Of a stretch of 64,000 bases of DNA, positions 16,201 through 48,290 are shown one piece after another. Position 1 is the first letter of the stretch, and every line of letters begins with the position of its first letter. The stretch covers positions 31,481-95,480 of the forward strand of contig JAQGDQ010000789.1 of assembly GCA_030141605.1 (NCBI GenBank), read 5' to 3'. Below the pieces are notes generated by a model. It ran no database searches, was not told where the DNA came from, and saw only the letters and a program-made list of their open reading frames with translations. Position numbers and translations under genes: made by a program. The stretch is from Tubiluchus corallicola. Its lineage: Eukaryota; Animalia; Priapulida.

Positions 16201-17321
16201 AAGGTAATAAATCTTTCACGTAAGGCATTCTTTAGAAAACAGTGTTTCCTTTCAATATTTTAAAGAATAGATTGTTTTGACCTACAGTTTAACATTGGGT
16301 CCAGCTTTGCTTTAATAAATAATTACTGTCTGCCACTAATGCCATCAGTAACACCAGTCAGTTTCTTGTAACATTGTTTTAATCAATTCTTTTTTCTTAA
16401 GTGCGTTCAAGTTGCAATTAGGCCACATTTCAAAGTTCTCCTTGCACGTTCGATAAGCGTTATTAGGCCTACTCTCTTCATAAGCACTTATAGGCATACT
16501 CTACATTTTATAAATAAATACTATTTGCATAGTGGATAAACACAGACAAACACAGCCTAACTCTATTCGTTTTTCCACTTACAAAAATAATGATAGGAGT
16601 CAACAACTTCCAGCATATCCTCCAGTATATCCCGGGTCTGAAGTTCATCATTGATTGAACGTCACAGCATAACTGTTCAATTCCTGCACAGAATATTACG
16701 CCTTATTAAACTTGAAACAGGAATCATTCTCTCACATTGACCCCTCAGTATTGTTCGTTTGTGAAAACTATTTTGTGTCTGGTCATAATTAACTCGACAC
16801 AAAAAAGTTGGCTTCTAATTTATGAAATTTTCAATTTATGTTTAATATGAATCAATTATCGGTCCTAAATTTCTATTAAATGAAGCTCCAAAGCTATTTA
16901 TAAACTTCTAAATCACAGTATACATTGTACGGAGACTACATAGGCCACATACACCCTCAGTTAGTCCGGCAACTCTCATAGCATTTAAATGTTTAAAGTT
17001 ACTTTTTGATTTCATTATAATTATTATAAGGAGGGTGCAATTTATGAAAGTTTACATTTTTATCTTTATTGGCTTTTACATGCACATAGTTTTTGCTTCC
17101 TTTTGATAATAATAAAAGTGAGACGTTTTTATGCTGCCAAAACTGCATAATAGGTGAAGGCGAGTTGTCTTTTGTTTTCGAACAATCACAATCCACGAGT
17201 GTATACTAAATTACTGATCCTTATATTTTGTTATATATGCATGTGTAAATTATATGTGTTTTTGTATTATGTATTCCATAAACTTGTAATTCGTAAAAAA
17301 ATCTTAATTACTAACTTACTA

Positions 17322-17409
<88 letters not shown>

Positions 17410-20400
17410 TCTTACTTACTTTCTAACTTACTAACTTACTTACTTACTCACTCACTCACTCACTCACTCGCTCACTTACTTGCTTATTTACTTACTCTCT
17501 CACTTACTTTTTACTTACTGGCTTACTTTTACTTATTTACTTACTTACTTGGTCATCTGTGTTATTCTCGGCTTGGGTCATCTAGACCGCTCTTTTATCG
17601 CTATATTTTCAGCTGTTGGACAACGAAGAAACAAAAATAAATGAAATTCACATACTTCATCATGTCCTTCTACTTCTAACAGAATTGCAAGAATCTTACG
17701 TTTTGGTTACAGTCGTTGACTTAAGCCTCACTATAGTTGCAATTAACTTGTGTACAGTTTATTTCTTTTTAGTACAAACCGGTCAAATTCACTATAAAAA
17801 TAAATCTCTCAAAAAGCGCACAACTGAACGCATTTCTTAAATTTTTAATTTGTAATTTTGGACTGAACACTATATACTGCTTTGCACCAAGTATAAAATC
17901 ACACTAGGCACGGATAATAGCTGAATGATTACCATGCGACCTCGGCTGTGAAATTAAGGAATGGCAGATCTGTTGATGAGTGACCACAGAGAAAGTTATT
18001 TTGGTAGTTTTATCTACCATCATACCCTTGGTTATTATATCAGTTAAGAAAGATCGTATACACATATTTTATGTACAACCTTTACAAATTCAATATCTAA
18101 CCTGATGATATTTGAGGATTATGTTTAATAATGAGACAGGTTCTGATCCCGCCATAATAAATAATCATATAATGTTAAAAAGGCAACTTTATTACAAATG
18201 CTAGGTGTCGACCTGCTAACAGTCAAGTTACTAGTTATAAAAGTCTTTTACCAGGACATAAATACAGAACACAGAATCTTTATGACGGTGCGAATTAGTT
18301 AAAATGTGAAAAGGGAAAGGATGACGAACTATATATTGGTTTCCGGCTAAATTCATGCTCCCGAGTTTTCTCTGGGAGTCATAAAACAAGATATCATCAT
18401 CAATAAAACAGCAGTGTCAATGAAACATCTGCTGTATTTTGATGGAAGCATTGAAGCTTTGGAACCCTGAAACATAGAAAGCTTGGTGCAGAATATTTTT
18501 TGACGCCTTTCTAGTCTCTAGCGAGTACTAGGTACTAGTTTTTCAACACATCATATAAAATTACAATAAATAAACGCAAAATTCCCAGGATTGTTAATGG
18601 GAAAGAGCGCCTGCAGTTGACTTACCGTAAAGCCAAGATGTCGCCACTAACTCGAAGAATACAGCAATAAACAAGGAGGCTCCGGCGGCATAAGAGTCCA
18701 TTAATGTTATTACAAAAACGCCACCCTATAAAATACTGCGCTATATAATTTGGAATAATGAAGGCTGTTTTATATCGCACATTAAATGTGCTGTTTCGAT
18801 TAAGTGCCTTCTCCTGTATCAGTATCTTGTTCATTATACTCTTATATGTAAACAAGCACAGGTCGAGTTCAGGACAGGAAAATCGCAAAATTCGGTCCCA
18901 AATTTTGCAGAACTTGTTTATTTGCGATAAATGGTCAGAAATAAACAGTAATTTTTTTCTGATCTTACAGAACGTAGACAATGCGTAGGCCTACGTCCAG
19001 CCTCCCATAATGTCAAAAATTAATTTTTAAGAACGCATCTTCCGTTATTCGACTCCGAAGATAATCGCTTCTTAAAATTGCCAGCTTAAATAAAATCTTT
19101 CAGCAAATGTCAAAAGTCTTCAAACAATTCCTTTTTCTACAAAATTTAAAAAAATGTCACTCAAAAAGTTTTGTCCACCAGAGATAATGCAGAAGACAAC
19201 GAATAACAGTTCAAGAAAACAAAATAAGATAGTGCACTTCTGAGACTTGCCATGGTCATAAGCATAAAGACGACAAAGTGTCTCTCAAAAATGTTTATTT
19301 TTCACAGGAGCTTTTGTCCTTCACGGATTTTTTCAGCTGAAATCTACTTGTATGGCCTAGATCTTGAAATATTTTGAAAGACATCTAAGATCTTGAAAGG
19401 GATCTAAGATCTTGAACGAGATCCAGGATCTTGAAAGAGATCTAAAATCCTGAAAGATCTTGAAAGACTTGCATGACTAGTCTTTTAATATCTAGACTAT
19501 ACAAGCAGATTTATGCTGACGAAGTCCGCGAAGGACGAATTAAAGCTCATGTGAAAACAAAAATTTTCGAATCTAAACGGGCACTTCTTTGCGATTCAGA
19601 GAAATAGATTAAACAGCTGGACAATTATAGGCATAATGTACATATGTATGTAGTGTCATACATAAGTGTCAATTTAGAGTGCGCCATAATTCATATATAT
19701 TTAGATTTTTCTATACTTACGTAGGTAGTACACGACAATCCTACAAGAAAAGTCACATAAATCATAATAAAGCTGAACACTTGTCGACTGTATTTCCATC
19801 GTTTTAGTAGCCAGTAAAGTTCATCCTGCAGACCTGTCAAAAGAGCCTCCATGCCACCAATCTATTTAAAAGAGAAAGTTTTGTCAATTGTAGAGCCGGG
19901 AGTCAAGGAATGTGCTTTACGACCGAAGTTTAGCAATACTGAGTCTGGTGAGTAAGTGGATGGCGGAAAACCAGAAAAATTGCTCTGCATATAACTCCTT
20001 GTTATTACCTCGTAGAAAGAAGATGTACGGACATTCTTGTGACTCGGAAATTACTATCGATAAAAAGCTAGGTTTGGCTCTTCACATATAAAAATCCACA
20101 TTAACTAGGTCCCATATTACTAAGAAAATTTCATGCAAAAAAACTGTCAACCGATTTAATTCTGGGATTTTTCGTTAAAAAGCCAGAATATGTCATGATT
20201 ATAGGAAAAACATTTCGTCATCCTCTGCCAATTGACATGAAGCTATTGTAGCCCTTATTTTAAGTGGCCATGTTAGGGTGAAAGCTATAAAAATCGTTGC
20301 AGTAGAACGAGAACCGCTCCCATTATTATGACTAACCTTCTAAGGCAAGCTGGCAAACGTAAGTTAACTATGATCAGATGTGAACACTTCCTCCTTCAAC

Positions 20401-20565
20401 AAGAGAGATAGCCGGAGGTAGTATGGAAAATCACTGAGAAGCTTTTTACTATCGATCGGCCATCCGTGGTCTATAAGTCAGAGCCAGCGTTTTTGTAATT
20501 TGGACAGCAAGGATCCAATAGTACTAATAGCAGAACACAATGTCTAGATGGAAGCAGCGTTAAGC

Positions 20566-20638
<73 letters not shown>

Positions 20639-23600
20639 CTAGTACTAGTACTAGTACTAGTACTAGTAGTACTAGTACTAGTACTAGTAGTACTAGTACT
20701 AGTAGTACTAGTAGTACTAGTACTACTACTACTACTACATAAGAGCTGACAACTTAAAAAGACAAGCAAAAGAGCAATAATAAACAAAAAGGAAAGCGCT
20801 CAAGTTAACTCTGAAAAGCTATATTATTACCTTATTAAAAGCTATACTGCTTCAGCCAATCTCCGACAAACATGAAGCCATGTACCATCATCTGGAAATT
20901 GAAGCAAATGTCACAAGTAACAAATCACAATTTTAAAAGACTAGATGGTAGCAGCAAACATGTGCATGAAGGACGAGAATCATATAGACGCTTGTTACTA
21001 CCATATAGTCTTTTAGTTCTGTGTCTGATGCTAGTTTGTCACTTGATGTATTTGATCAAATTTTCAAATGCCGGTATACAGCTTCATATTTGTTTGAATG
21101 TGGCTAAAGCAGTATAGCCAAAACTTTGCACAGTTTTCAATAAAGATTTGAAAACTTCACCTAGTTTTGGCACTTTGTCTTTTGGTTTATTGCCAAGTTA
21201 AGATTCCCAAAAAGGTACTCCAAGATAACTTTAGTATGTGTAAGAACAGTTACTAAGTTTTGTTTGCTATAAAATGTTTATTGAACGAAAATTATAAACT
21301 TCGCTATCATTTAAAAACCGAATAAATTTAATTTTAAAGCACCAAACTTACTGAACTCCCTAGTCCAAGCGTGAGCAACATTACAAAGAAAATAAGGGCC
21401 CAAAATGTTGATCCTGGCAAAGTAGCAAGTGCATCTGGCAGTACCGTAAATCCAAGTCCAGAACCTTAACAAAAACGGATCCTGGTTTTGAGTTTGAAAA
21501 AACAATGACTAAGTTAACTGTACTAACATTGTTTAAATAATCCTACTTAAAGCTTGTGAAACATACCAGCACTGACTACATTGGAGATGCGAACATTTTT
21601 TGTCCAGGCCAAGTATCCCATGTATGAAAAAACTACAAATCCACACAAAAAGCTCGTCAAACTGTTGACAATTGACGTGATAAGCATGTCTCTGAAATCA
21701 GCAAGAAAATAAACATGTAAACAATGCAATGTATTGCAGTAAGCACTAAAATCGGGATTTTCACTATCAATAGTTTGTAATTGCTCTCAAAAGGCAATTT
21801 GTCTACGGAACGGTTACTAACTGGCAAAGGAGATGAAAGAGATGCTTGGTACAGAAATGCACACATCAGGGTATTAAGTCCACACTAGGATCAAAACCGT
21901 TTCGGTGGTCACTCAAAAAACTGTAAAAAAACTAGTCAATATATTCTTTAGTATCGCCCTTGTTATTATAGTCTGTCATTAGTTAACGTTACTGCCAGAC
22001 CGAGTGTCATCATTATTGTTAGCATCGTAGACGCCACAGGCGTTTTGGTATCTTCGAATCGGCAAAGTCTCAGACAGGTCTTACGTGGTTAAAAACTTAC
22101 ATTGATCAAAATAGAATAAAAAAGCTATTCAACGAATAGTTTTCGTCATACGTTATGCCAGTGTTAATTGACCTGCTACTGTTAAACGACCTACATTCGC
22201 GTGTAAACTTATTATAACTGGGATTGGTGTCCACATCAGCAACAACATGTAATGAAATGTCATAACACCGACAAGCTTTGACAACGATAAAATTAAGCCT
22301 ATAGCAAGGCAAAACGCATAGTGTTGATCCCCTTAGGCATTGTGGATAACGGCAAATGGCCATGTATCAAACCACAGAATTATAATTTCTTCATTTTAAT
22401 GAAAAATTTCTTGAACTTACCTGTAGACATTGTTGTGAAATCTATTGAAGGACGCGTAGGCCGTGTATACACCAAATCCTGGTCCTATGGAGTAGAATAC
22501 TTGTGTTGCTGCATCAAACCATGTCTATAACAATAATTATTGTATTGTCGCACGTTAATTAGTTACAGGAGTTCTATTTCTATAGGCATTTATTTCCATT
22601 ATTCACCCTTTTAATACCCTTTACCGTGGGTATATAATAGTGTTAACAGTAAGTATCTTTCTTCTATTACATAGCCCTGAGTAACTTCACAGAAGAAAAA
22701 GCTGTTAATGACGAAATTGGGAAAAATTCACAAATATCAGTCTTTGAAAAGAGCGCAGCTTCAGATGGAGTAGAAGGAAAAGAAGAAAAAAGAACACAAT
22801 AGCACAAATTCTCTAATAGGTGGTTTTCGGTTTCTAACAGATAAACTGAGGGTTTGTAATGCAAAACTTAAGCACACATTTTGCTAATTAAGCACACAGG
22901 TAAAATCTGTAGGTGGCATTAAGCAGTAAGCAAAATCAAAACAATACGATAGTGAGTAAATGTGAAGACCGTTAAAAATATACGAATAAAGTAATATGGT
23001 GGTCAAACATTATCCAGGTACACCCATTATTTAAATTATCGTAATTACATAGAAGTTTTCCAGTTAAAAGTGATTCATTAAGAGAATAATAATTCTTTTG
23101 TACTACATTAACATTAATAAATTAACATTAACATTAACAGATTTGCGAAAAGGTTGCTTAACTACAGCTGGCTCGACAATGTGTCACTTAATGGTAGTGT
23201 TTGTTTGAGGTGTCAAAATTATTTTAAAATTACTAAAATCAAAAGTATGATACACCTTTCTTACACAAGGTTTATGCTTTTTCGATGATATATACATGCT
23301 GTAAATGATAAATTCCCAAAAGTTCGTGTTTAGTTATTTTTTGCACATTTTCTTTTTAATTTGAAGACATACAGCAATGCATTGTATTAGTACTGCGTCT
23401 TTTCAACTTCTTTGTTATTCTGCAATCAATATTCTAGACAGAACTACTGTTCCGCTTTTGCTTACCTCAAGCCGTAAGAGCTGCGTTGCATTTGGTGTGA
23501 GATAGTACAGGATACCATCTTTTGCTCCAGGCAATATAGCGCCTCGAATAAGCAGTATAATCAGCATAACGTACGGCGTCACTGCTGTTAGATACATAAC

Positions 23601-26600
23601 CTAACAAAATAAGATTTTGCGATTTTTTATTCAAATATCCTGTAGTTATAAAGGGAAAAGAAAGAAAAAATTACGACGTTCTAAACTGCTACTGCAGTTT
23701 GTTATTAGATGAAAGACAACCACAAGTAATTACTAACACAAATTTTTAGGCGTGTGTTTTACATATGGCACAGAAAAAACATAGCAAAGCAAGAAACACG
23801 AAGAAAATGCATGGAAACACTAAATCCCTGGCCTCAGTTAGACAACACAACAAAAACTGATAGAAATAATTTATTATTAAGGTTCTGTGGTTAATTTTAA
23901 ACCTTGTAAATGCAAACACTACAATGTTCGGAGATGTGTCAGAAAGAAAAAGAGACAGAAAGACAAAAAATATTAAAAGACAAAACAGAAAAATAAAGAA
24001 AGAAACAACAGTTATTGTTAAGAAAAAGAAATGTCTAGAAAAGCAACAACGAAGAAATGTTGTTGTACATAAGTAACCATCTTGTTATGACGTAGTTGAC
24101 AAGGCCTACCTTCCCAGATGTCTTAACACTTTTCAGCAATGCCAGAAATAGAAAGGTAAACACTAGCAAAGCACACAATGTCACGTCCCATTTCAAACCT
24201 CCCAAATCGTTTATTCCAGAGCTTTTGGGTATACCCAACACTTTGTGGCTGTAGCAAAAAAAGAATGGTTGAAGTTTGTGACGCCGGGTTTTACTTGTTG
24301 GTTTTCTGTTCTTTATTTAAACCAGATTTTCTTCAACAATTCCCAAACTACTACTCCTAGCCGAGCGGTGAGGTAGTACACAGATGTTAGTAGTTTAGAA
24401 ACTGAATAAGTTTCTCATAGGTACCTCTACGGGGCGTACCTTGAGATAAAAGATGTGGGTTCGAATCACGAGCGGGATCTTAAGTGTCGGCCTTAAGTTG
24501 CTGTTATTGTGTTTAGCTAACAAAGTGTGAACTATTCATAATATTTTCACTATTCAAATACTTTTTAAACGTTCACAAAGAAACGCACTCCAAGATACAT
24601 ATTTTGTGTATAAAGAACAATCAAAATTTAATGAACAAATTTGTGATGATATGATCAAAAAGATAATTTTCAAAAGCAATCAGATAAATACGAGGCAAAA
24701 CCCAACTAAAGATAAACAAATTAGATTCTAATACACTAGGTACTCACTAATTACCCTTTCCCTGGGAGGTGCACCGAAAAACCTGTCCACGCTGAGATGG
24801 TTCACTGTTCATTAATATCTTGGCATGCCACATAATCATTGGTGACGTCACTGGAAACGAAGTCTGCACTGTCCCGTCTATGAGGTAGGTGAGGTGACAT
24901 CGAGAATGGTTTAACTTCCTCAGAGGCTGGCGTCAGGTAAATTTATGCGGTGATATTCAGTCCAACCTTCCACATGAACAGTAGTAACTCCATAACGGCT
25001 TTTAAGCAAATTGTCCCAAGTATCCATTTTGCTGTAAATTTCGATAGTGCACAAAATGTATCACAACGTATCTAGACTGCTCGAAAACGTTACTGTCCTT
25101 TAACTGTAATCACAGCTATATAAAATGCTAAATGCCAAACTGCAACACATTACATAGTCCGCAGGTAACACGTACAGAGCAAACGTCTTTACTTCATAGC
25201 TATAGAGGTGCCGACTGAAACCGTCGAAATAAACTAGGACGACAACCTGGTTTCCAACTTATGCATTTGTTGAAGGACAGGTGTGTGGCTTTCCCATCCC
25301 GCAGTACTTACAGTACCTATTCGTAATACTAGCTACACATTCATGTATAGTAAACTGTTCATAACAAAGTTTTAGTAATCATATGAACCCGTGAAAGCAA
25401 TACTAAATTAGAAAGTCTGAAAAGTCCACTGAGACTCGAGACCAAGACCTACTGCTAGCCGTTGTACTAAAAGGTACCCTGATGTCTTAGACTCGGAAAT
25501 TTACATTATAATTTACACTAGAGATCTGTGAGCGACACATTTCATACTGCATCAAGACATAATGCAAATTCAATCGCTATGTTGGTAACAACAATAAAGT
25601 CAACACCCTGTCCTTGTAACTTTATATGCATCCACAAAATTTATCCAGACAGTTTAGTTTCGAATAGAAATTGTGATGCTGATAATGATGATGATGATGA
25701 TGACAGGTCATGCAAATTACCGCGGTGCGACCTTTTGCCGTGAGGATAAGCAATGACTTTGACATGAAGTGAACTAAAAGGAACTGGAGTGAATTGAAGT
25801 ATCATTAACTAATTAGATTACGACCGTGATTGCCAGAGTGTTTAAACTATTGTGGTTTATTTTTAACAGTCATTACCCATTGCGGGTAATGAGTTGCAGA
25901 AAGAAAGGAGACGCCGCAAATGGTTTATAAAGACTCTGGTAATCACGGGCATAATCTAACTGATTAAAGATATCGTTAGTTGCCAGCTAATGTGAGAAAA
26001 ATGAACTGATTTGTGTTTACAAGGATTAATTCTAGCAGAAAAATTTAAGAGCGCTTAAATTACTCAAGACTAGGGGGACAGGCGATAGGGAATAGATGAT
26101 ACATGTGTCGAAGGCTAGCGATGGTACCTTTCAATATAATCGTGACTTTGTCAGGGCTGACCCTACCACTAGATTAACTAGCCAGTCGCCTAGGGCGCCA
26201 AATTCTGAAGTAATTATTTAGTATTTAAGTTTAGTATAAGTAACAGCATAGTGTTCGTGAAATTCCTTAAGTAGCCAGCGCTAATTAAATGAAATGAACT
26301 ATTTGTGTATTTTCCTGTCAAAATGCATAATTCATCGATTCTAGCAAATGTCTTTCCGCGGCAAAACACGTTTTATTTTTGCTTTATCTGGTTTCCTTAG
26401 ATTATGTCATTTCTTACAAACGTTACAGACGCGTTATCCTTATTTATCCAGTTTCTACATAGTAGCACAAGCTGCAGATAGGTAATTAACTATAGCTAAT
26501 TAGTACACTATAATACATGCATACATACATATAATACGGTGTCAAATCGGTGTTGGCCGCGCCTCACCGATTTGAAGAATAGAGGAAAACCGGCTAGAAA

Positions 26601-29469
26601 TCGAATCCTGATTCCTTCTGGTGTCTCTGGGTTTGGCTTCGCAATGACATTATATGCGCGGACTATATGCTGTGTGTCAGCCTCGACTTGTCACAGATGC
26701 GAACTCAATTTAGTATTTAATTTTCAATTAACTAATTGACTATTAGTCATTATTTTGATTTGTATTTTTAAACATAATTTTTCATTGGCACTAAATATTG
26801 CCGTGGTGACACCTGATAACAAAATTTGCAGTTATCGCTTAATATTTTGCTACCGCTATATGTTTTGTATGGAATTAGGTCACTTAGCTTCCTCAGTTTA
26901 ATGCAGTGGTTTTTCACACTAGATAGCAGGAATAGAGCTTAAACAACGATCATAGACAAATGGGTGTTAAAAACAACGTTTTCCTCAAATGCCATGATAG
27001 ATTTGTTGATAGAAATGAACAGATTAACTGTGACTGTTCTTGACTAATGTACATTATGTTTACCATTTTTGTGTATATGTGGATCGACTATGGGACTACG
27101 AGTATGACAAAAATACAGATTGTAAAGTTAAACTATGTTTTCATCAATTGATTAACAACAGCTTTCAGTCATTTTTCATTTATTCTCAAACTCGGCCAAG
27201 CACGGTCAAGTGCAAAATGGCTTAGTTTCAGCAGGATAATAAGAAAAGCAAGACAATAAACAAGTCTTGTTCAAATATAAAAGCAGTTCATACTCGAAAA
27301 ATTCTTTTCCTGGCGATGTTTGCTGTGCCGAAAAATTCGTAGGCAAATTTCCATTCGCGCAGTAGACAGTATTCCACGGGTGTCCACAAGTGGCCCAAGG
27401 CAAATTAGCAGTGAAAGATGAGAAGAAATAGTAAAATGCCCAGCTGACGATGATGTTGTAGTAGAACGCTACATAGAATGATATCAAACATGAGGCAAAC
27501 CCAGCGCCTGTAAAAGATTTGGTTTGATTGACTGACTGATTTTTTTTATAGATTTAGTCGATCTGTACTAAATATACTTTTAATTAAAATGGAAATGTAT
27601 AGTACAAACTAAAAGTTTACGGATTTTAGATTTTACATAAATATAAAATAAACTGTATATAATAGGAGAAAGGGAAAAGTCCTTCCAGGTTAAAGTCTCT
27701 TAGTAGAAGAGTTTCAGTAAATTCAGCTAAGTTTAACACCTTGTCTCACTAGTTATTTCATAATCAGAGTCACAATTTTGAACAGGCTTGAAAATGCCGA
27801 CATTATGCATTTTGCGCATTAAATTTATGGCGGCTTGTAAAATTTGATCGGATTTCTGCAAAAAATCTCATTTGAACTGGCAACAATATGTTCAGGCAGA
27901 GCATGTCTTGACAAATCTGTTTCTAAAACGTAATTTGCTAACATCCAATTTGAATAATTTACTAAATAATTTATTAAATTTTACCAAAATAAAAAGTGCC
28001 ATTAAGCAAATACATTGTGCTATATCTTCGTAAAAATGTGAGTTTTTCTAACTACTAAGCGATATTGTTTTTATTATTTAGTTATGCACACCTAAACTAT
28101 ATATATATATGTATATGTATAGTTTGTGGGACATTTTCTTTGCTCAGTGAAACCTATAAATTAATCATACCTTTAAATAAGGGGCATAAGGTATTCCAGA
28201 TCCCAAGGCAACCTCTTCTGTGAAACTGTCCAATAATCAACTCAAGATACATCAATGGCATGCCAATCAGAAACAACATCAACAGATAAGGAATTAAAAA
28301 TACAGCTGAAAAGCAAAAGAATAAATTGATGAAAATAAATGCATGTTGCTAAATCGCGCAGGCAACAGCATGCACACATAAATTTTTTCTAATGGGCAGT
28401 AGCATGCACACCTAAACTTTTCCTAGTAGGCAGCAGCATGCACACCTAGACTTTTCCTAATGGGCAGTAGCATACACATCTAAATTTTTCCTAATGGGCA
28501 GCAGCATACACACCTAAACTTTTCATAATAGGGGCAGCATACACACCTAAACTTTTCTTAATAGGGGCAGCATACACACCTAAACTTTTCCTAATGGGGA
28601 GGAGCATACACACCTAAACTTTTCCTGATAGAGAGCAACTAGCATTCTTCGACAAGGTTTTGAGGAGTATATAAGGTAAGCGTTTTATCAGCATTGTTGA
28701 CTTCCTCAGCAACTCAGCGAAATAAAATTTCTACAATAGAAAGAGAAGATAAATTGAATCTAAAACATTATCGTCTCTTGCTGTTGTTGAAATTTTATTT
28801 TAATAGGACTTTCTGAGGAAGTCAACAGCGTTGATGAAACGTTCATGATCATCAATAAAGTTCGTTAACAGCACAATAATCCCAGTCTTCATTAATGAAG
28901 AATAATAAAATAATCCTAAAATAAACCATAGTAACATTAACCATTTTAGATGAGGCACGTACCTCCTCCGTGTATGTAGCACAGAAACGGAAATCTCCAG
29001 AAGTTTCCCAAACCAACAGCGTAGCCAATAAGAGACAAAAGCGATTCCAACTGCGTGTCCCATTCTAATCTTTCGCCCGTTTTTTCTCGCTCAAGCTCTG
29101 CCCTTTTTCTCTCTTTTTCTGGGACGAAATAGAACGCCTGTCCAAGGGCAACGGAATAAGTTGCTGGTGGCTGCACGGAACCAAAAATATTCAAAAATTA
29201 ATTATTTCGAGTGTTTTCAACGTTCTTTATCTGTAACTTAGCAGTATATTACACGTGTACAAAGCACTTTATTTTGAACTGGCCGGTAATCGGTTAATTG
29301 AAGTCAAATGTTATTTAAAGGAAAGGACAAGAAACTTAGCATGTTGGGTTTATTTTACCGTTATCACTAAAACCTAGAAAAATTTAACAAAGAAATTTGC
29401 AAAAACCTGTACGTAAAGCATAAATTTTACACCAGTACAAAGATCTTCAGGTCCAGTGGCAGCCGCCAT
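13283..29469 (-). CDS. SLC6/NSS transporter paralog A: monoamine-transporter-derived, with TM1 Asp->Gly and TM8 Asp->Gly; 15 coding exons, ~614 aa
   Basis: Exons (minus strand): 29469-29407 (tentative), 29170-28963, 28305-28171, 27507-27294, 24248-24110, 23600-23466, 22524-22421, 21691-21567, 21464-21352, 19861-19721, 18725-18626, 16683-16583, 15051-14914, 13673-13569, 13306-13283 (sum 1845 nt, in frame, all GT-AG). Motifs: [64 protein letters not shown]-terminus LRHWISI*. Confidence 0.93.
14565..14764. mobile_element. MITE with ~28-bp terminal inverted repeats (PIF/Harbinger-like)
   Basis: Left GTGGCATTTACCTGACATCCGGAATGCGT versus right ACGCATTCCGGATGTCTGGTAAACGCCCAC. A related partial copy lies at 34289-34455. 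Confidence 0.75.
17308..17550. repeat. (CTTA)n/(CTCA)n microsatellite
   Basis: Direct reading. Confidence 0.95.
19235..19592. mobile_element. Fold-back/MITE element with long imperfect inverted arms and a central AAGATCTTGA repeat
   Basis: GAGCTTTTGTCCTTCACGGA..CAGCTGAAATCTACTTGTATGGCCTAGA versus TCTAGACTATACAAGCAGATTTATGCTGACGAAGTCCGCGAAGGACGA..AAAGCTC. A homologous copy lies at 47812-48092. Confidence 0.75.
20565..20737. repeat. Compound (AGT)n-(AGTACT)n-(ACT)n microsatellite
   Basis: Direct reading. The poly-S/poly-T ORFs here are artefacts. Confidence 0.95.
24357..24545 (+). mobile_element. tRNA-derived SINE-like or Pol III-type sequence with widely spaced box A and box B
   Basis: Box A-like TAGCCGAGCGG (24358) and box B-like GGTTCGAATCA (24458), with an internal hairpin GGTAC..GTACC. 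Confidence 0.4.
26151..26220. mobile_element. Possible hAT-type MITE terminus
   Basis: CAGGGCTGACCCTACC...GTCGCCTAGGGCGCCAAA resembles common hAT MITE ends. Other end not found. Confidence 0.25.
28362..28640. repeat. Minisatellite, ~32-33-bp unit, ~8 copies
   Basis: Repeated GCAGCATACACACCTAAACTTTTCCTAATGG variants in intron 2 of paralog A. Confidence 0.92.
28681..28841. repeat. Imperfect ~29-bp inverted repeat with ~100-bp spacer
   Basis: CGTTTTATCAGCATTGTTGACTTCCTCAG (28681-28709) versus CTGAGGAAGTCAACAGCGTTGATGAAACG (28813-28841). Confidence 0.7.
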
Positions 29470-30019
29470 TCACTTGAAAATTGTGACGTAACAGGTCGAA
29501 TATCGTCACTTTTCGTGAACGCATCGTTGCTTTCCGTAAGAGCACGCTGCATAAACTAATTCATACTTCTACAGCCTTCCTAATATTTGCTTCCAGAAAT
29601 ATCACAAAACTAACTATCTAATTTTTAGGAAAAGATATTATACTTTTAACGGAAATTAACAGGGCGTTGGTTTTCTTCAGTCGATCAACGACGTCATTGG
29701 TGACTGTTCAAAATGAAAGCGCTCAAATGTGAATGATCGTGACTTTACTAAAGCGATTTTACTAATTACACGAGGCGTTTATTACATTTTCGTCCTTCTA
29801 ACAGTTTTCGCGAACACCGAAATAATCGTAACATGGCTTGGCCTTTCCTTTAACTCAAGCCTGCCTTCAATACAATGACTTATTTATTTGAAACTGTTTA
29901 TCGTAACTGCGACGTTATCAGCGAATTCATTATAAGAAATTTTAGATTGTTATAATTGGAACTACTGCCACTTTAGTGTCTAACTAACATGAAGCGTTCT
30001 AGGTCCGTCAAGATGAGAA

Positions 30020-30310
30020 AAGTCTCTCAGAAGTGGACAAGGGAGAAAAGTGAGTATTGAGAAACGTGGACAGTGCGAAATGTGGACATTAGGAAAAAGT
30101 GGGCAGTGAGAAAAGCAGACAAGACTAAGAGAGAAGTGAGAATAGTAGACAGTAAGAAAAATGAACAGCGAGACAGCGGACAGTGAGAAAAGTAGAAAAT
30201 GAGTAAGTGACCGGTGGACAAAGTAGTGGACAAAGAGTAGTGGACAAAGAGAGAAGTGGACAGTGAGCAAACTGAGCACTGAGAAATGTCAACAATGAGA
30301 GAAGTGGATA
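30020..30310. repeat. Degenerate purine-rich tandem repeat (~16-bp GAGAAAAGTGGACAGT-like unit)
   Basis: Recurrent AAGTGGACAGTGAGA / AAAAGTG motifs. Confidence 0.7.
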
Positions 30311-30319
30311 TTACAATTA

Positions 30320-30475
30320 ATGATTATTATTATTAGCGATGTTACAAACCGCAGTTAATTAAATTTTGATACCAAACTTGAAAAACAGGAAACGAGAAAA
30401 AGTTAGTATGCACACTGGATTTTAACCACGGACCTTCAGCTCACATTGCAGACCCCTTAAACCACTAGGCCATCA
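30320..30475 (-). mobile_element. tRNA-derived repeat family copy
   Basis: Minus strand: box A GATGGCCTAGTGGTTTAA, box B GGTTAAAATCC, then the family tail TTTGGTATCAAAATTTAATTAACTGCGGTTTGTAACATC. Homologous to 58963-59100 and 44655-44785. Confidence 0.7.
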
Positions 30476-30630
30476 TATCTCTCAGCGGTCAGGACAGTCC
30501 AAAGTTAATCCTTTTTTCTGGCCGACCATATTCAGCATTTTGAAAGTTAGATCGCTCACGCTACAGTAATTGTAACTAACTGGACATATTTTTTATTTTG
30601 ATCAATTTTGATTCTGAATTTTCGATGGAT

Positions 30631-30800
30631 GATTAATTATTATAATCTTAATAAGAAGATTTTTATTAATGATGTTACAAACCTACAATTAATAAAATTT
30701 TAATACTGTACCACTTAATACTGTATTAAGACGGGAAATGTGGAAAAAATTCCAGGCAAAAAGCCAGGCTAGTTTTCAGCCAGGTGATTTAAACAGTGAA
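30631..30800 (-). mobile_element. tRNA-derived repeat family, partial copy
   Basis: ATTAATGATGTTACAAACCTACAATTAATAAAATTTTAATAC and TTAATTATTATAATCTTA match the family tail. Confidence 0.55.
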
Positions 30801-30827
30801 CTTTTACTTGGGCTGCGGATTGTAACG

Positions 30828-31225
30828 TCAAAGTAGGCATTGAAAAAAAGTAAACAGTGAGAAAAGTAGGTATTGAATGATGTAAATAGTGAGAAAAGTG
30901 TGAATATTGAAAAAAGTAGGTAAAAGTGAATAGTGAAAAAAGTATGCATTGAAAAAAGTGAATAGTAAGAAAAGTGGGTATTGAAAAAAGTGAATAGTGA
31001 GAAAAGTGGATATTGAAAAAGTGAATAGTGAGAAAAGTGGATATTGAAAAAGTGAATAGTGAGGAAAGTGGGCATTGAAAAAAGTGAATAGTGAGAAAAG
31101 TGGGTATTGAAAAAAGTGAATAGTGAGAAAAGTGGATATTGAAAAAGTGAATAGTGAGGAAAGTGGGCATTGAAAAAAGTGAATAGTGAGGAAAGTGGGT
31201 TTTGAAAAAAGTGAATAGTGGAAAA
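30828..31225. repeat. Minisatellite, ~31-32-bp unit, ~12 copies
   Basis: Repeated GAAAAAAGTGAATAGTGAGAAAAGTGGGTATT. The three overlapping F/H/S-rich ORFs are artefacts of this repeat. Confidence 0.95.
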
Positions 31226-32722
31226 ATGGATTGGTAATGTGGTACAGACTGGTGATTAAATTAGGTAACAATTTTTGGTGCATCTTAACTCTGAATTTTG
31301 TCCTCTATCCCAGTGGTAATTTTTTTTAAAAACGCCCAGTTATAAATAAAATAACAGAATTTTTTAAACCTGATTTTCGTTTTGTGACCTGACGTCCATC
31401 TTTTCTTGCAACTCAAGTGGCGGATTCTCTTTCTCCATCTTGTCCTCTCTTCAAGTCCTTCACGAAACAAACGGCGAGATACGAAGTTGTTGACGCTTAA
31501 ATCAGCTTACAAACAGCACACGTCAGTGTTACATTATTAAAAGTAACTTTGATTTAAATATTTATAAAAAAATCTCATTCAAAACCGCAAAATTTGGTTT
31601 ATCGTAGTGTCAGCTGTGCTGCACAGAACACTCTCACAAATATTAACATACTCGTTTGCGCCATGAACCCTAGAAGTTGTAGCTGCTGCAATGTGGTTTT
31701 ATGTTCCCTGCCGGCTTATCAAGTTATTTAGGGGTTCCTCCCGCTTCTCTTGTTACAAAAAGTCTTAGACCAGCATCTTTCTAGGTCGGATGCTTATAAC
31801 TGGAACCGCTGCATGGCTTACTGGGTATAGTGTTTTCCTGAAATTGTAAATTCTGGCTTGTTATCTTACAACTCATAGTATTTGAGGTCAGAAGCGAGAA
31901 ACAAAATTGAATATAATTTTCCTGATCTAGTTATGATCTGAATAAGCACTTCATTTAAAATACAACTTTGTTTCTTACACAAATTACTTTTCCAAAAATC
32001 TGAATTTTTATATTTTCCGAATAATGAAAAGCTAGAATTAGATAAACAAATGAACTAAAGTGTCATATTTTTTCCTAAATGTTCTACTGCCCTACACACT
32101 GCACGTTCGATCGCACAGCCTTGCATTCCAGATATTTTCATAAAAACTGTGACGAATCCTTCGCAGTGCCACAGTTTTGGGCGACTACAATTGAATGATT
32201 ATTACAGACGATTTGAGATAGCAGTTGCTCCTACTTCAGTTGCACGTGTGTCAGCGTCTCATAATCCACTAGATAAGTATTGTGCACGTCTGTAAAATGT
32301 GTGTTTTGAAGGACAATTTGCTGCGCGTTGGCATCTGGCTATAGTAATATATGAAGTGATCCAATATCTTTAATCCAAAGTGTTTGATACAATAACACTA
32401 GAAAAAGATTGACAGATTGACTAAACCAGAGCTATATTTGCAGCCTAGTTTTACGCATGGTGCTGCAAGACACCGTCAAAATAAATTGATCCCGTGTGAA
32501 CTAGCTTCTGTTTACATTAGTGTTCTTCACATAAGAGAAATTGTTGCAACTGACAAGCTACAGAAAACAGAACCTGTGCTAAAATAAAAAACTTGTCAAA
32601 TAACAACTGGACTTAATTCGTTTTCCAGTTTTACCAAGATGGCAAGGCATTGTATATCTCCCTAGGTTGCTGAATTCAAATACGATAAAATGTTAGTTTT
32701 ACACCAGCTGCTGCTTACTCAC

Positions 32723-34288: not shown

Positions 34289-34455
34289 CAGACAAAATCG
34301 GTTTATCATGTTTCAATGCACCCGTTTATCAGGCCTGCGTTATGCGTTATTTTTTCTGCGGCTATTTCCTATTGGTTTTTTATTCCGCACCTATTCCGCA
34401 GGGGGATAACGCATAAAGCATACACATTCCGGGCGATAGGTAAAAGCTGCTTTAA
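34289..34455. mobile_element. Partial copy of the 14565-14764 MITE
   Basis: Shares AAAATCGGTTTAT..TTTCAATGCAC.CGTTTAT...TTATGCGTTATTTTTTCTGC.G.TATTTCCT and the terminal CATTCCGG...GGTAAA. Confidence 0.7.
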
Positions 34456-34881: not shown

Positions 34882-37800
34882 TCATATTGAAATGTAATGT
34901 CTCGCCTGAAAACACAAACATAAACATATTAAAAAACTGAATATAGGGTGAAAAGTAAAAAATACATTTATATATTTAAATAACTACTAACTTTTAATGT
35001 TTGGTTTGGCCTAATAGTTTAAATATGGTTAACCAGAAAGCATTTATTGTAACCAATTGTTATTTTAAAAAGTTAGGCCTAGTTGTTTCATTGTTGTTTG
35101 ATAAGTAACAAATGAATTACTATATTGACTTTAATTTATCATCTTATTTCTCTGTGTTTTTACTGTAGCCTCGTCTTGAGCCTTTGTAGAAATAATTTTT
35201 AAGCTACCAAGTAAAAAATAAATTCTTACACTTGTCACTCATTACTCCTTCTTAATGAATGACCACAGATGGCAGCACATAAATTGAATCACTCTAATAG
35301 CTTACTCGAAATATTTAATGAATGTATATTTAATGAACATACACAATGTATTATATAATTTTGAAAACATCGTTCATTATGCCATTCACCGGGACATAGT
35401 GCAAGTACTAAAATGCAGCCACTGCATTTATAGGGATAAATTTTTCACACTTATCGATTCCATGTCGTAAGAACAGATGGCGCCACTTACCTGAAATCTT
35501 TTCACCACACGTGTTTGTTGCATGACTTCATGTTCATTTTCAGGTGTAAGACAAAGAGCCAACCGCTGCTCAGGCGTCCCTTTTGTTGTTAAATACTGAA
35601 AAAAAGTTGAAATAGACATAGTATTAGCAAGTGCAAGCCTCTCTTGTGAACTGCGGAACAGTGACTTTTTCAATATAGCGTGAAATACAAAGGTCTCTTT
35701 TATTGTGAGATATGGGAAATCACTGGCCCGCAGTTTAAAAGGGAGGCTTGCACTTGTTAATCAACTGGTCAATTAACGTTATAATTTTTTATTTATTTCT
35801 CGCAAAATTCAGTTTATATGCTGAGTACACAATAAAGTGAATCATGCTTCACACAAGTGTGAAAAGCTTGATGTATAGATCTTTTTTACATTGAAATTAA
35901 AACTTCGCATACAGCCATACTTTAGTCTCTACTCAACATCATTATCATGTATAAAATATAAAAATTTTAGTATATCCAGCTTTTTATTACTGTTTTATAC
36001 CTTTTAGACGTTTGTCGCTTAATTGTTTATTGCGACGTTAAAGTATGTCAAGCTACAGTAAGAAGACAAGAATGTGCAGCGACGGTCGACCATTCTGGCA
36101 GGTAAGCCAGTTTACCTACATAGAAGTGAGGCACTTTTCACATGCATTTTGTGCAGAGGTAATGCATTTCCAGCTCACATAAAAATATTTAAAAAAATGA
36201 ACAAAACTGGAAGTTTGTTATTGTTGCAGTCATTAGTTACTCGTTTGTGTAGTAACTCTATAAAGAGGTCTATTTCACCGTGTTGCTGGTCTCATTCATG
36301 TAAAAAGTTTTTAACAATTTTTCATAACGTCATGATAAAGTTCTGTATTGTGAATTTTTATGAAAAAAACGGATTCGTGGCAATGGTAATTTAAAGACTT
36401 TAAAGATTTAAACGAACTGACCGACTGACGGAAGCGCATTATATGAAGCCTAGCAGACGAGCTAGGTCCATGCCTACAAACACGAGTTTGTACATTTTAC
36501 AAGACAGCAAAATACGCATACATGCGTGTATGCAAATAACCCAATGCTTCACATTCCGGACTAGTTTTTTTGCTCAAGCTTTTTAGCTGAAAAAATACTG
36601 CGTAGAAAAGGAACTAAAGTTTCTTTTAAGCTTCTTTACCTCTATTTTAAAATTTCCCATTTTATAAGTTCTGTTTCGCTAAAAAATCTGCAAAGCCAAT
36701 GCGAATAAAGTTCTTTACGTTAACCGAGGTGTATAGTTTTTTTATAAACAACTAATAAACTTAAATTGCTGACCCTACCTTGTACACTGCATGAATTGGT
36801 ATTAAGATAGCCGAGGAAAGACAAATTAGCCATCCAAGTGCATTAGCCCACTTCGGATAAGTATAGTCTTCATATGTAAGTGGCGCATAGCCAATAATAC
36901 TGGCTAATATAATGCACTGAAACAAAATGTACTCAAATTAACGCTTAATTATAGGGCCATTATTAGAAATAAGTCTAAGATTTAATGTGTTGAAAAACTT
37001 CTGCAACCTTCGTGTAACTAATAACAAAAAAAATAAGTAAAGATCCGCATTACTTTGTAAATATTATATAAATATAGTAAAGATCCAGTATAAGATCGCT
37101 CAGATTTCACTCTTGGCTTATACTTCTTGACAAGAGGACACAATGTAGAAATATTCAATACGCAAAAAACACTTATTACTGCTGCCACAAATATGGACTT
37201 TCGTATTTTTGGTACTAAGTCTAAGTCACACTTCTTAAAGTGTGAACATTTCGTACATTCATGTTCCAATGACTCCTTTCTTTTTCGTTCTTTTTTCAGT
37301 GTTGTTCTTTTCTTTCGATGATTTATTACGTCAGCCTTTTACTTTTGCGTTGAATGTTTTCTTTCCAAACACACGAATGTTTGCTTGGTCAACTATGTTC
37401 ATTTGTGTGCTTTTGTCCAATTGTTCATCCTTCTTATATGAGTTTATTCATTTGTTATTTGTTTCTTTGTTCGCTGTTTGTTCACCCATTCGTTACTTCA
37501 TTTATTTGTTTATCTGCCAGCTAGCTAGTTATTTAACATGACAAAAGAAATTTGATGTTCTTCTGCATGTATGTCTGAAAATGTGACTGTAAGTTTTGTA
37601 AAAACATTTTCCTCGCTTTCAGCAGTTAAGTTAATAATTATAACTATAATATAGATTTTCATAAAACTTACAAAAATAAATATGGGACTCAAGAATTTCC
37701 AGCATATCCTCCAGTATATCCCAGGTCTGAAGTACATCATGGTTTGGACATCTCTACATAAATTCTCAATTCCTACACACAAAAACATAAATTGTACACA

Positions 37801-38716
37801 TACCTTTTAATATAATAACAGCGTAAATCGTCTATATTACTTTTTCAAACAATAAAAAAGACGTCAAGCAAATCAGGACTTGAACTCCAGACCTTGCGCT
37901 AAATACATACTTGCTTTAAAAGTTCTCAGATTACAACACTATCAACTCGTGCGGGCGTTTCATTGATGAAAAATGGCGTTATTTTCGCCTAGTTCCAATT
38001 CTTTGAAATTTAGTACACACGCCATAAAAATTAATGAAAAGTATAGAATTGCAAAAGCCACAAGGACGAAAAACAGGTATATTACCGCATGCTGACGTGG
38101 TTTTTATCTGCTTACCATAAAACCAAGATATTGCTACTGTCTCGAAGAACACAGCAATTAGAATGGATGTCCCAGCAGAGAACGAGTCCAATAAATGTAC
38201 TACGTAAGAACCGCCCTAAAAAGGAAAATGCCAAATAATCTTAGTAATGTAATATGAAGATGACGACGATAATGGCGGTAACGATGATGGCAGTGGCAAT
38301 GACAACGATCACGACCATGATGATGTTGATGATGATGACGACGAGAATGGCGATAACGATGATGATGAAAGTGACAAACGACGACGATGACGATGATGGT
38401 TATGATAATGATGATAGTGATTGTGTTGGCAATGATGGTAACAACAATGACGATGATGATGATGATGATGATGATGATGATAATTGTGGCGATGACGATG
38501 ATAATGACGATGTTGATGACGATGGTGATGGTGATGATTAAGATGATGATCATGATGATGATGATGAAGATAACGACAATGATGATGATGATGAAGATCA
38601 CGACACTGATGCTGATGATGGTGATTGTGACGATGACGTAGATTTTGACGATGATGATGATAATGATGATGGTGGTGATGGTGATGATGATGATGATGAT
38701 GATGATAATGATGATG

Positions 38717-38748
<32 letters not shown>

Positions 38749-38778
38749 GATGATGATGACGACGACGATGATGATGAC

Positions 38779-38811
<33 letters not shown>

Positions 38812-41800
38812 AAGATGATGGTGATGATGAAACTAATGACAATGATGATGACGATTGTGGTGATGATGATGGTGATTATGACGATGATGAAGATTGTGAC
38901 GATGATGACGGTATTGACAATGATGATGATACTTTGATAATAACAACAAACACCACAATGATATACCCGGCAATGACAACATCTAAGATAATAATGACGA
39001 GAAAGTAATGACGATGACAGTCATGACTGAGGTGACAATGACGATGACGACGACGATGATGATTGTGTTTATGAAGTCGCTTATCGCGATAATAATCAAT
39101 GATAATATTTATAAGTATAAAAAAACTGGAGTAGTGATTGTTGTATATCCAAAATGGCGCTGCAATTTAATGCAACATAATTTGCAACAAACACTGATGA
39201 CTGATCTCAAAATGGCGATGTTATTTAGGAAAACACTCACATATGTAACGCAAGAGAAGCCCACGATGTAAGCGAAGTAAATTATAATAAAGCTAAACAC
39301 TTGTCGACTGTATTTCCATCGCTTTAACAGCCAATGCAGTTCATCTTGCAAGCCTGTCAGAAGAGATTCCATACCTCCCATCTAGAAAAGAAAGTCGTTC
39401 CCGTTGAACACAAAAAATCTTGCAGCAATAATTGTTGTCGAGTGGTATTTAATGATTGGTCTTTCAAAGCTGGAGCTAAGAGAACAAAAGTGAAGAAAAA
39501 AGAAGGAATGAGACGACAAGAAAAGGAAAGTGGAGAGAAGAGTAGAGTAGAAAGAGAGAAGAGAAAAGAAGGAAGGCAAGGCAAGGGAAGGCAAGGGAAG
39601 AGAAGAAAAGAGAAAAAAGGAAAAAGGAGGGAAGTGGAGGAGAGAGGAGAGGAGAGAAAAACAACATGTAAAAAGAAAGAAAACATTTATTTATCGTCGC
39701 TCGTTTAGCAAACAACATTAGTAATAAGAGCTATTTAGCGACTTACAACAAAACAGGCAAGGACACAACGCACAAACAACAAATAGTGTGTAGATGTGTA
39801 TCCTAGTATTGGCCGCCGCTTGATTCGAGCTGAAAACTGCACTTGCATCCCGCAATATAGACCACTAAAAAGTTATAGATATGACAACTATATAGACAAC
39901 TTGGTTACCCGACACCCAGGACTGAAGAGTGGTGAAGAAGACTCAAAACAATCGTTGTCTTCATGCCTTCATATTTATACAATGTCATCTTTGTAACGGC
40001 ATTTTCTTGTGGCATAATGGCGGAATTTATATAAAGTGAAAAAGTGCTTTTGTCGTGGAGCGCAAAATACCTGGCACAAGATTGAGCTGCATAGTTACTA
40101 TTAAATTATTTCATGATTATGCAGACCCATGCAGGTTGAAGGAATCACATTCATTACCTCAGTGAGACTTGCTTGCAAACTTCTATGAACTTACCGCACT
40201 ATCTAAACCAAGAGTAAGCAACATTATGAAGAATATAAGTGCCCAAAACGTAGATCCAGGCAAGGTAGCAATTGCTTCGGGATACACCACGAAAACCAGT
40301 CCTGGACCTGTGAAAAGAAAAACGATAGAACCATAGAACATGAAATAAAACTAGAGTTTCATACGTTTCTTTATCAAAAGTAACTTTCCCCGTAGAACAA
40401 TCATATCTCCCTTGTTCTATCGTTCAGTCAAGCATTTGTTCTTGTTTCTAAATGGCCTACTAATGGGAGTACGCGATTGTGGGCCCAACGCGGCTTAGCT
40501 CTGTGTTTTCTGTTTGTTGTTCTTTAGTACAATTGGTCGCTTTTCCGATGAACAACAAGATAATTATAACTCGTTTAGATTAAAGGCTTTTTAACTCATT
40601 GGCTCACAACTTAGCGGGTACCCAATCAAAACTTCGGGTGATCTTTCAATAACTGATTTTTCAAACATAACCCCGCTTTTGTCTAACCCACACACGAACA
40701 AATCCCAATTATATTAAGAGTTATTAACTACTTAATGAGCATTAGCATAACAAAATGCTTAGAAACATAAACGCTGGTCTAAGAAATCAACTGACAACAA
40801 AAGCATCATTAGGTCTAAATGCACTGGAAATGGAAATCATGAGGCCTTTATTTCACATAACACATTTACAATAATTTTTAGTACAAAAATACAGTGAAAA
40901 GGCCTACAATGAGCATAATACAAATTATTTAATACTGTTTCTGTACAAGAAAAGGCTCACACTATGTTTGCTTAAGGATCAATGGAAATGTACTGAACCA
41001 TGAACTGGACAAGACTGGAGACAGTGAATGCATAAATGGAGCTCGGATACCGACAAATGATGGTCTGTTCGATTAAGTAGAAGTCTTTTGTACTTTGTTT
41101 GGCATTACAACACCACTTAAGTTTTACCACCAAGAGCATATGTGGTGGTAACCGCTTTTTACCGTATTTTACTGCTACAAAATAATTCATAGGGATGTTG
41201 ATTTAGAGCCCGAAAAAAAATTACAAGAGCACTCACTGACAGGACAAAAAGTAACCACAGTCTCAAGCTGTATGTTCGTAGAACGAACAAAAAAAGTTTT
41301 GGGTTTTTCTTCTACGTGTTTTTCAAGTGTGGAACTCCTTACCCAGTTCAGTAAATGCACCTTTGGTCACTGCAAGCAACTCTAAACTTTTCAAAAATAG
41401 ATTGAAGTTTTTGAATTTTGATAAATGGTTTGTGTGATAATCGTATGTAAGCAGCTTGTCTCTTTACGTCTCCGCCCACATTCATGTTTTCAGTGTTTTA
41501 TAGTCCATTTTTAATCTATTTTTAAAACGAATGTGAAATAAAATAAAAATAAAATAAAGTGTCTAAAAATGTGTACAGATGTCTATGCCTACAGAACATA
41601 TATCATACTATGTTATAAGGAGTAAACGCCTATGGGTTGAGAGTATGTCAACACCGCTAACCACTTACCATCGCTGGCCACCTTGTCAATAGTGACATTC
41701 TGCGAACTTGCCATATAACCTAAGTAAGAGAAAATGACGAAACCAGAGAAGAAACTCGTCAAACTGTTTACACTTGCCGTGATGAGCATATCTCTGCAAT

Positions 41801-43976: not shown

Positions 43977-44048
<72 letters not shown>

Positions 44049-47672: not shown

Positions 47673-47760
47673 TTTGAATTGATTTTCTTCTTGCTCCTCG
47701 GTTTGTCTGAAATAAGTTAACAACACAGTAAATTAATTATTCTAAACTTAATGTCAACAG

Positions 47761-48290
47761 TATTATTAATGATGCTACAAACTCACAGTTAAATTTTAAT
47801 ATCAAAATGAGATATGCTCTTCTAAGATTCGCCATGGTCATAAACGATAAAAGAAGTCAAATTTCCTTTAGGTCTCAAAAAATCTTCATCTTTTCCTTCA
47901 GAAGCTTTTGTCGCTCGCGGACTTCATCGACTGAAATCAACTTGATATAGCCTAGGTATTGAGAGATCTTGACAGCGTCTATGCTGTATCAACTTGTCTT
48001 CAGCTGATGAAATCCATGAAGGACGAAAGCTTCTGAAAGAAAAATGAAATTTTTTTGAGACCTAAAGAGCATTTTGACTTTGTTTACCATTTAATACCAA
48101 ATTTGAAGGACAGAAAATGTCAAAAAATGTCGCTCGCCAGGATTTAAACAAGGGACGATCTGCTTACATAGTGGACGCCTTACACAATCAGGCAAACCGC
48201 ATTCACATATGGCATCAAAAATTGTCACTTTTCACACTTCCTGTCACCAAAATTTAATTAATTACGGCTTCGTAACATCATTGATAATAC
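47761..48290. mobile_element. tRNA-derived repeat family copy with inverted tails, interrupted by a fold-back MITE (47812-48092)
   Basis: Left end TATTATTAATGATGCTACAAACTCACAGTTAAATTTT; right end AAAATTTAATTAATTACGGCTTCGTAACATCATTGATAATA; box B-like GTTTAAATCCTGG on the minus strand near 48140. The insert is homologous to 19235-19592. Confidence 0.6.

Follow-up and report, generated by a model that had tools for sequence, protein, structure and literature searches.

The transporters of the SLC6 family are commonly divided by a single residue of the first transmembrane helix (TM1), which is Asp in amine carriers and Gly in amino-acid carriers (PMC10707687; PMC7466448; these and all other papers are cited from excerpts of their text). 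Biogenic amine transporters are described as having this Asp without exception (PMC10707687), and in the human dopamine transporter (hDAT) roles have been described for this residue (D79), for the aromatic sub-pocket and for the Na2 ligands D421 and S422 (PMC11324517). In carriers with Gly, the substrate carboxylate occupies the site of the Asp and completes the Na1 site. Thus the substrate carboxyl of GAT1 lies in the Na1 site (PMC10352132), and the GlyT1 carboxylate contacts backbone amides of TM1 as well as the Tyr of TM3, with a TM6 Trp narrowing the pocket (bioRxiv 2020.12.20.110478). Here we analyse two tandem SLC6 genes, paralogs A and B, on a 64,000-nucleotide stretch of the genome of the priapulid Tubiluchus corallicola (contig JAQGDQ010000789.1, positions 31,481 to 95,480; the window, to whose positions all coordinates refer). 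By its place in the phylogeny, paralog A belongs to the monoamine clade, yet it lacks the defining residue of that clade and bears the TM1 signature of amino-acid transporters without being a member of their subfamilies.

In origin, paralog A resembles the protostome octopamine transporters and the chordate NET and DAT (SLC6A2/3), which give its exon-by-exon best matches and have in common with it the aromatic pocket of TM3, TM6 and TM8, the Na1 and chloride ligands and the salt bridges of the gates. Unlike these carriers, A is without the TM1 Asp and the Asp of the Na2 site, and it has changed in extracellular loops 1 and 4 (EL1, EL4) and at Y335. In TM1, where its GYAVGLGN is identical to the motif of GlyT1, and in the TM3 Tyr it is like GlyT1/GlyT2, PROT, GAT and TauT, from which it is not descended; with Phe at the TM6 Trp of GlyT1 and Gly at hDAT 426, its pocket is predicted to be much larger than that of GlyT1. 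SERT (SLC6A4), a separate clade, has the Tyr and the last Gly of the motif as A does (GYAVDLGN in a lizard SERT), but keeps Asp. TuriSERT, a neurotransmitter sodium symporter (NSS) of Turicibacter, has Gly at the Asp position like A; it is however bacterial and chloride-independent, has an extra Asp in the Na1/Cl site and binds an amine, and is thus an exception in the opposite direction (PMC10707687). The engineered dDAT-GAT (PDB 7wgd) combines a dopamine-transporter scaffold with a GAT1-like carboxylate-binding site (PMC10352132); it is laboratory-made and was shown with inhibitors, whereas A is natural, and the likeness is drawn from the published description.

The TM1 exon of A occupies 29170-28963 on the minus strand, flanked by AG and GT, and that of B 47106-46854; both translate as the initial annotation had read them, and both match the SNF domain (Pfam PF00209). 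The codon at 29014-29012 is GGT (Gly76) in A and stands at the position of the amine-binding Asp, while the corresponding codon of B, 46905-46903, is GAC (Asp89). In the ungapped register with solved chains, in which B exon positions 46-84 correspond to hDAT 57-95, Asp89 falls on hDAT 79 and hNET 75, in agreement with the earlier assignment. The paralogous exons align over 86 columns with 50% identity, and PP.TY, EKE, EWDT and SLLS are common to both. The description of GYAVGLGN as a GlyT motif also holds, as it is present in GlyT1 and in the GlyT2-type chain 9km2. Searched against PDB, the A TM1 exon ranks GlyT1 first, with an identical motif, whereas NET/DAT is the top match of each of the six further A exons tested.

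The initial annotation had treated the three changes of the motif as one coordinated switch, and this held in part. Tyr73 (29021-29023; hDAT F76) is a state found also in vertebrate SERT and GlyT, and Gly78 (29006-29008; hDAT A81) one found also in SERT and amino-acid transporters; since SERT has both and keeps Asp, only the change from Asp to Gly is diagnostic. Altogether, four TM1 sites of A (E65, Y73, G76 and G78) have moved to amino-acid-transporter states. The chance of obtaining the three motif changes by random single steps is about 0.003, an estimate that ignores fold constraints, i.e. the few residues tolerated by the unwound helix. A HMMER search with exon 3, a query that exerts no selection on TM1, returned 19 TM1 motifs among the 150 matches listed. 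Asp was present in 15 of them and Gly in 4; the Gly motifs belong to the amino-acid-type rows, and all 15 monoamine-type motifs keep Asp. At this residue A departs from the monoamine clade and B conforms to it, and A has the TM1 features of an amino-acid SLC6 transporter, namely a Gly leaving room for a carboxylate, the Na1 ligands and the TM3 Tyr. An exon swap could be ruled out, as the N-terminal half of the TM1 exon and the intron positions are common to A and B, and so could a sequencing error, given that the codon change involves two bases and stands among many others that are coherent. That Gly is ancestral was likewise rejected: Asp is found in all sampled relatives, though the gene model of the closest one, Priapulus caudatus (XP_014680190.1; P0126), skips the TM1 exon.

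The prediction that A is the sister of B within the monoamine clade was borne out by the trees. A quick tree of 42 rows was followed by a careful tree of 22 of them, from which long partial and redundant rows had been dropped, and A groups with B in both. In the careful tree, this pair is supported at 98/96 and the monoamine clade at 92/95; the P. caudatus fragment (164 amino acids) is the closest sampled relative and the sister of A + B (100/98), and the three stand beside the arthropod octopamine transporters at 87/89, a moderate placement. When exons 3-4 (A 27294-27507 and 24110-24248; B 44833-45043 and 44220-44358) and the two rows mostly covering them were omitted, leaving 20 rows, A + B rose to 100/100, which rules out their sisterhood as a conversion artefact of these exons; the deeper forks, including the placement of the octopamine transporters, were unresolved in this tree. 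A grouping of A with GlyT, GAT or nutrient transporters, named in the initial annotation as the result that would overturn it, was rejected: forcing A together with the four amino-acid-type rows that serve as outgroups, which are partly incomplete and in which GlyT and nutrient transporters are not represented at full length, was 52 log-likelihood units worse (approximately unbiased (AU) test, p=5.7e-5). The best matches of both paralogs are arthropod octopamine-type and vertebrate noradrenaline transporters, with identities of 50-55% for B and 42-48% for A among the best 120 of 241 matches. Since A is the sister of B within the monoamine clade, its GYAVGLGN is, on this topology, a motif derived inside that clade.

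Paralog A is an intact gene, as the initial annotation had stated, with 15 coding exons, 14/14 introns bounded by GT-AG, an open frame of 616 codons plus stop and an in-frame stop directly upstream of its ATG. Between A and B, over residues 57-610, the pairwise Nei-Gojobori estimate gives a nonsynonymous divergence (dN) of 0.187, a synonymous divergence (dS) of 0.99 and a ratio of 0.19 (bootstrap 0.15-0.24). Even if all of dN and half of dS are assigned to A, its ratio is at most about 0.38, so the value near 1 that would have told against the earlier interpretation is not seen. Moreover, about 48 nonsense changes are expected under neutrality and 0 are present. The A branch is about tenfold longer than that of B in the 22-row tree (0.58 vs 0.053), and relative-rate tests with five outgroups give p=1.5e-5 to 0.003. 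By branch length A is the derived copy, and its substitution ratios show constraint over the greater part of its past, weaker than in B, and no decay. It is very improbable that A is nevertheless decaying or already silent, and its motif a by-product of relaxed selection within the tolerance of the fold. The strong rate asymmetry and the failure of word and HMMER searches to find an orthologue of A would suit such an account; against it stand the frame without stops or frameshifts, the intact introns and the ratio of 0.38 or less, which leave room for very recent silencing only.

Synonymous divergence between the paralogs is uneven among exons (p=1e-4): in exons 3-4, synonymous change affects 0.18-0.21 of same-residue codons, compared with 0.33-0.67 elsewhere, which suggests old gene conversion between A and B in this region. 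A 226-base contig from a sequencing run presumed to be RNA lies on 24129-24245 and 27294-27337 and bridges the third-to-fourth exon junction of A. Its mismatches number 17/161 bases against A and 14/110 against exon 4 of B, its exon-3 end matches A and not B, and it ends short of TM1; a third paralog or the copy of A in a related species may be its source. No RNA data set was listed as containing 12800-13700, and near-identical pieces of one presumed-RNA run were found neither on A 18500-29300 nor on B 39100-47800, a blank that is uninformative.

Outside the three motif positions, the TM1 region of A carries, in hDAT numbering, D68E, Y88F, Ile at 92, N93H, G96A and A97V (next to F76Y, D79G and A81G), with NGGGAF turned into HGGAVF, and conserved EL1 residues are altered. 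The remaining exons of A that were placed on solved structures, all on the minus strand, are as follows. The TM3/EL2 exon (27294..27507; query 2-53 = hDAT 142-193) keeps S149, V152 and Y156 and has Ala at G153, as in B. The TM6 exon (22421..22524; query 2-34 = hDAT 311-343) keeps Q317, S321, G323 and F326, but the gate Tyr is changed to Phe (Y335F, codon 22449-22447). N353 and S357 are kept in the TM7 exon (21567..21691; query 1-38 = hDAT 345-382), G425, G426, M427 and E428 in the TM8b exon (19721..19861, starting at hDAT 424) and the gate residue D476 in the TM10 exon (18626..18725; query 1-33 = hDAT 467-499). In the EL4/TM8 exon (21352..21464; query 2-36 = hDAT 388-422), S422 is kept and three EL4 residues have changed (P to S, V to G, Y to L); Gly412 (GGG, 21360-21358) stands at the Na2-site Asp, where B has Asp424 (GAT, 40201..40203). 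Of the Na2 pair D421 and S422 that characterizes the monoamine clade, B thus has both and A only the Ser. Gly occupies the Na2 Asp position in GlyT1 as well.

In total, solved SLC6 chains are matched by seven exons of A in the same order, as befits an SLC6/NSS member with its LeuT-type layout of 12 helices and its conserved motifs in TM1, 3, 6 and 8. The Na1 ligands (N82, S321, N353), the chloride ligands (Q317, S321, N353, S357) and the gate residues R60, R85, D436, D476 and E428 are all kept in A, and so is the aromatic sub-pocket (equivalents of V152, Y156, F326, S422 and G426); R60, R85, Y335, E428, D436 and D476 are the gate residues of hDAT. A further case of Gly at the Na2 Asp was noticed in Gigantopelta aegis XP_041349165.1 (P0131), a gene model in which two divergent genes of SERT type are joined: its second half keeps the TM1 Asp and has this Gly, and its first half has an altered TM1b.

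From these residues, the reading that we favour, at about even odds, is that A has become a neofunctionalised Na+/Cl--coupled transporter whose substrate bears a carboxylate. This substrate would most likely be an aromatic amino acid, for instance Tyr, Phe or L-3,4-dihydroxyphenylalanine (L-DOPA); aromatic acid metabolites and other amino acids would be the next likeliest cargoes. We put forward more tentatively, as a possibility that leans towards doubt, the specific proposal that an octopamine/noradrenaline-type carrier regained the TM1 motif of amino-acid transporters while its catechol pocket stayed unchanged, and so became a transporter of Tyr/L-DOPA. After the tandem duplication, B, to judge from its canonical residues, would have kept amine reuptake and thereby freed A to change. 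The loss of the TM1 Asp from A would make room for a substrate carboxylate completing the Na1 site, while the unchanged wide sub-pocket (equivalents of S149, V152, Y156, F326, S422 and G426) would still hold an aromatic ring; without the Asp of the Na2 site, the affinity for sodium or the coupling to it would be altered. Because this wide aromatic pocket is unchanged, an aromatic amino acid would be the likeliest cargo, which fits the suggestion of Tyr or L-DOPA, and the Phe at the TM6 Trp of GlyT1 speaks for a carboxylate substrate whose side chain is large. The evolutionary claim, a derived and selected loss of Asp in an intact duplicate of the monoamine clade, is well supported, in one genome, by the trees and substitution ratios; the predicted switch of substrate, which rests on the same single genome, is plausible.

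Several observations weigh against a carboxylate substrate for A. A lizard SERT (row P0146) reads GYAVDLGN and so has the Tyr and the Gly alongside Asp. TuriSERT has Gly at the Asp position and yet binds 5-hydroxytryptamine (5-HT), not tryptophan or 5-hydroxytryptophan (5-HTP), so Gly is no guarantee of an amino-acid substrate (PMC10707687). The D421G change removes the Na2-site Asp and leaves Ser at 422; the amino-acid-type rows that cover TM8 keep this Asp, and in hDAT D421N reduces uptake to <10% and causes a leak (PMC7612411). The evidence from glycine transporters is divided, as GlyT2 uses the Na2 Asp in a model (PMC4919009), while the solved GlyT2 site (excerpt of PMC13273173) and that of GlyT1 (excerpt of bioRxiv 2020.12.20.110478) are described without it. 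The departures of A are also widespread. In 238 columns conserved to at least 85% among 49 full-length matches, which were collected with TM1 words of B and are therefore biased in TM1, a departure is seen in 31 for A only, in 4 for B only and in 18 for both, and 22 of the 31 A-only departures lie outside residues 65-94. Their clustering in TM1 (9/27 vs 22/189) gives p=0.006 in a Fisher test, but p=0.20 after correction for the selection of this tract. Most of the 27 changes of A outside the four TM1 sites match neither transporter class, which would also fit loosened constraint, and the TM3 residues kept in A may be due in part to the gene conversion with B. Finally, no orthologue of A was found by word searches with A exon 3 (six candidates, none passing) and A TM1 (one of six candidates passing, a GlyT-like fragment) or by HMMER (best 60% identity).

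One alternative, which we regard as unlikely although it deserves attention, is that A is still a carrier of amines or of their uncharged derivatives. It would then either bind a monoamine in the way of TuriSERT, with no Asp, or accept an N-acyl amine (N-acetyldopamine or N-acetyloctopamine, for example), with the carbonyl in place of the Asp. N-acetylation inactivates amines in ecdysozoans, and the aromatic sub-pocket of A is the same as that of B. The precedent of TuriSERT, displaced by 5-HT and not by tryptophan or 5-HTP, is weakened by its extra acid in the Na1/Cl site (D262; PMC10707687), where A keeps Asn. Moreover, no new acidic residue appears among the changes of A in TM1, 3, 6 or 8, and Asp is kept in every one of the monoamine-type TM1 motifs among the matches listed.

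With a similarly low probability, A may have been kept for a role other than coupled uptake, as a weak, leaky or uncoupled protein that conducts an ion leak, works as a sensor or modulates B as its partner. A has lost the Asp of the substrate site as well as that of the Na2 site, and its gates are altered (D421G, Y335F, NGGGAF to HGGAVF, EL4); the D421N variant of hDAT is leaky and barely transports (PMC7612411), and the long branch of A with its relative-rate results points in the same direction. However, A retains every residue of the Na1 site, the chloride site and the gate salt bridges, and TM1 has moved to a motif at work elsewhere in the family and not to random residues. The loss of the Na2 Asp has parallels too, in the gastropod SERT-like copy with an intact TM1 Asp (second half of P0131) and in GlyT1, whose Na2 site is described without Asp (excerpt of bioRxiv 2020.12.20.110478).

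As for the origin of the motif, its transfer into A by conversion of a short tract, with an amino-acid SLC6 gene as donor, could coexist with a carboxylate-carrying function and is the least probable account: in a stretch of 14 codons, four changes lead to states of amino-acid transporters, a GlyT-like fragment (P0125) also has QLE and WRFPF in common with A, and the proportion of synonymous differences (Nei-Gojobori pS, a cruder count) is 0.85 in codons 67-88 vs 0.55 overall, but codons for the same residue in A and B show no raised divergence in the tract (9/18 differ vs 151/354 elsewhere, p=0.63, at low power), fourfold sites are identical at 4/9 vs 72/155, WDT and the Ser of SLLS in this region are common to A and B where other SLC6 rows have Phe, and one non-synonymous step suffices for each change, so that a graft of the TM1 tract from another SLC6 gene is, at this low power, unsupported.

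The two genes lie head to tail on the minus strand with 3.4 kb between them, and a tblastn search of the 64-kb window found no third SLC6 copy. Their proteins are identical at 430/613 aligned residues (70%), and the gene models, which rest on homology and not on transcripts, have 15 coding exons each with matching intron positions. Paralog A, the derived member of the monoamine clade, spans 13283..31438 (exons 31438-31370, 29170-28963, 28305-28171, 27507-27294, 24248-24110, 23600-23466, 22524-22421, 21691-21567, 21464-21352, 19861-19721, 18725-18626, 16683-16583, 15051-14914, 13673-13569 and 13306-13283). Paralog B, predicted to be a canonical monoamine transporter of the octopamine/noradrenaline type, spans 34882..47672 (exons 47672-47610, 47106-46854, 45737-45603, 45043-44833, 44358-44220, 43770-43636, 42990-42887, 41793-41669, 40307-40195, 39381-39241, 38215-38116, 37772-37672, 36916-36779, 35595-35491 and 34905-34882) and has 628 codons from the first ATG found. 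Exon 45737-45603 of B ends with its one GC donor (45602-45601), where A has GT, and the first ATG is preceded, at 47706-47672, by an acceptor and a frame that stays open up to it, which makes an earlier coding exon possible. A non-coding repeat of 80% identity is located in an A intron (14606-14740) and downstream of the B stop (34287-34421), and a short motif, which we take to resemble the core of a CTCF site, is found in both paralogs on the plus strand (13553 and 35475), just inside intron 13 beside the splice donor. Histone deacetylase exons on the plus strand (6139-6456, matching PF00850, and 8247-8657) converge on the 3' end of A. Further away, an HTH-psq transposase-like remnant lies at 60318-60617 (minus strand), with inverted repeated DNA nearby (about 61000-63960).

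In the literature searched, whose scope excluded most subscription journals and supplements, we found no natural monoamine-clade transporter without the Asp, no paper on priapulid monoamine transporters and, by title, no substrate tests of an Asp-to-Gly change. Three clades of monoamine transporters have been described, in a text whose excerpt does not use the word "aspartate" (PMC10244343), and a duplication of molluscan SERT has been reported, in the excerpt without a change of the Asp (bioRxiv 301192); the excerpts of PMC8310414 and PMC6590891 contain nothing that bears on such a change.

A natural exception in this position is of general importance, since the TM1 residue is treated as the divider of amine and amino-acid SLC6 transporters, and A together with its 70%-identical neighbour B makes this rule testable. 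The pair also allows one to ask what else a monoamine carrier needs in order to accept a carboxylate, including the loss of the Na2 Asp. Whatever the substrate of A may be, clade alone cannot give the substrate in the annotation of invertebrate SLC6 genes. If the proposed change of substrate is true, A would have reversed in nature the switch from which the monoamine transporters arose, and, standing beside an amine-carrying sister, it would offer a ready pair for defining the smallest set of changes that separates the transport of amines from that of amino acids.

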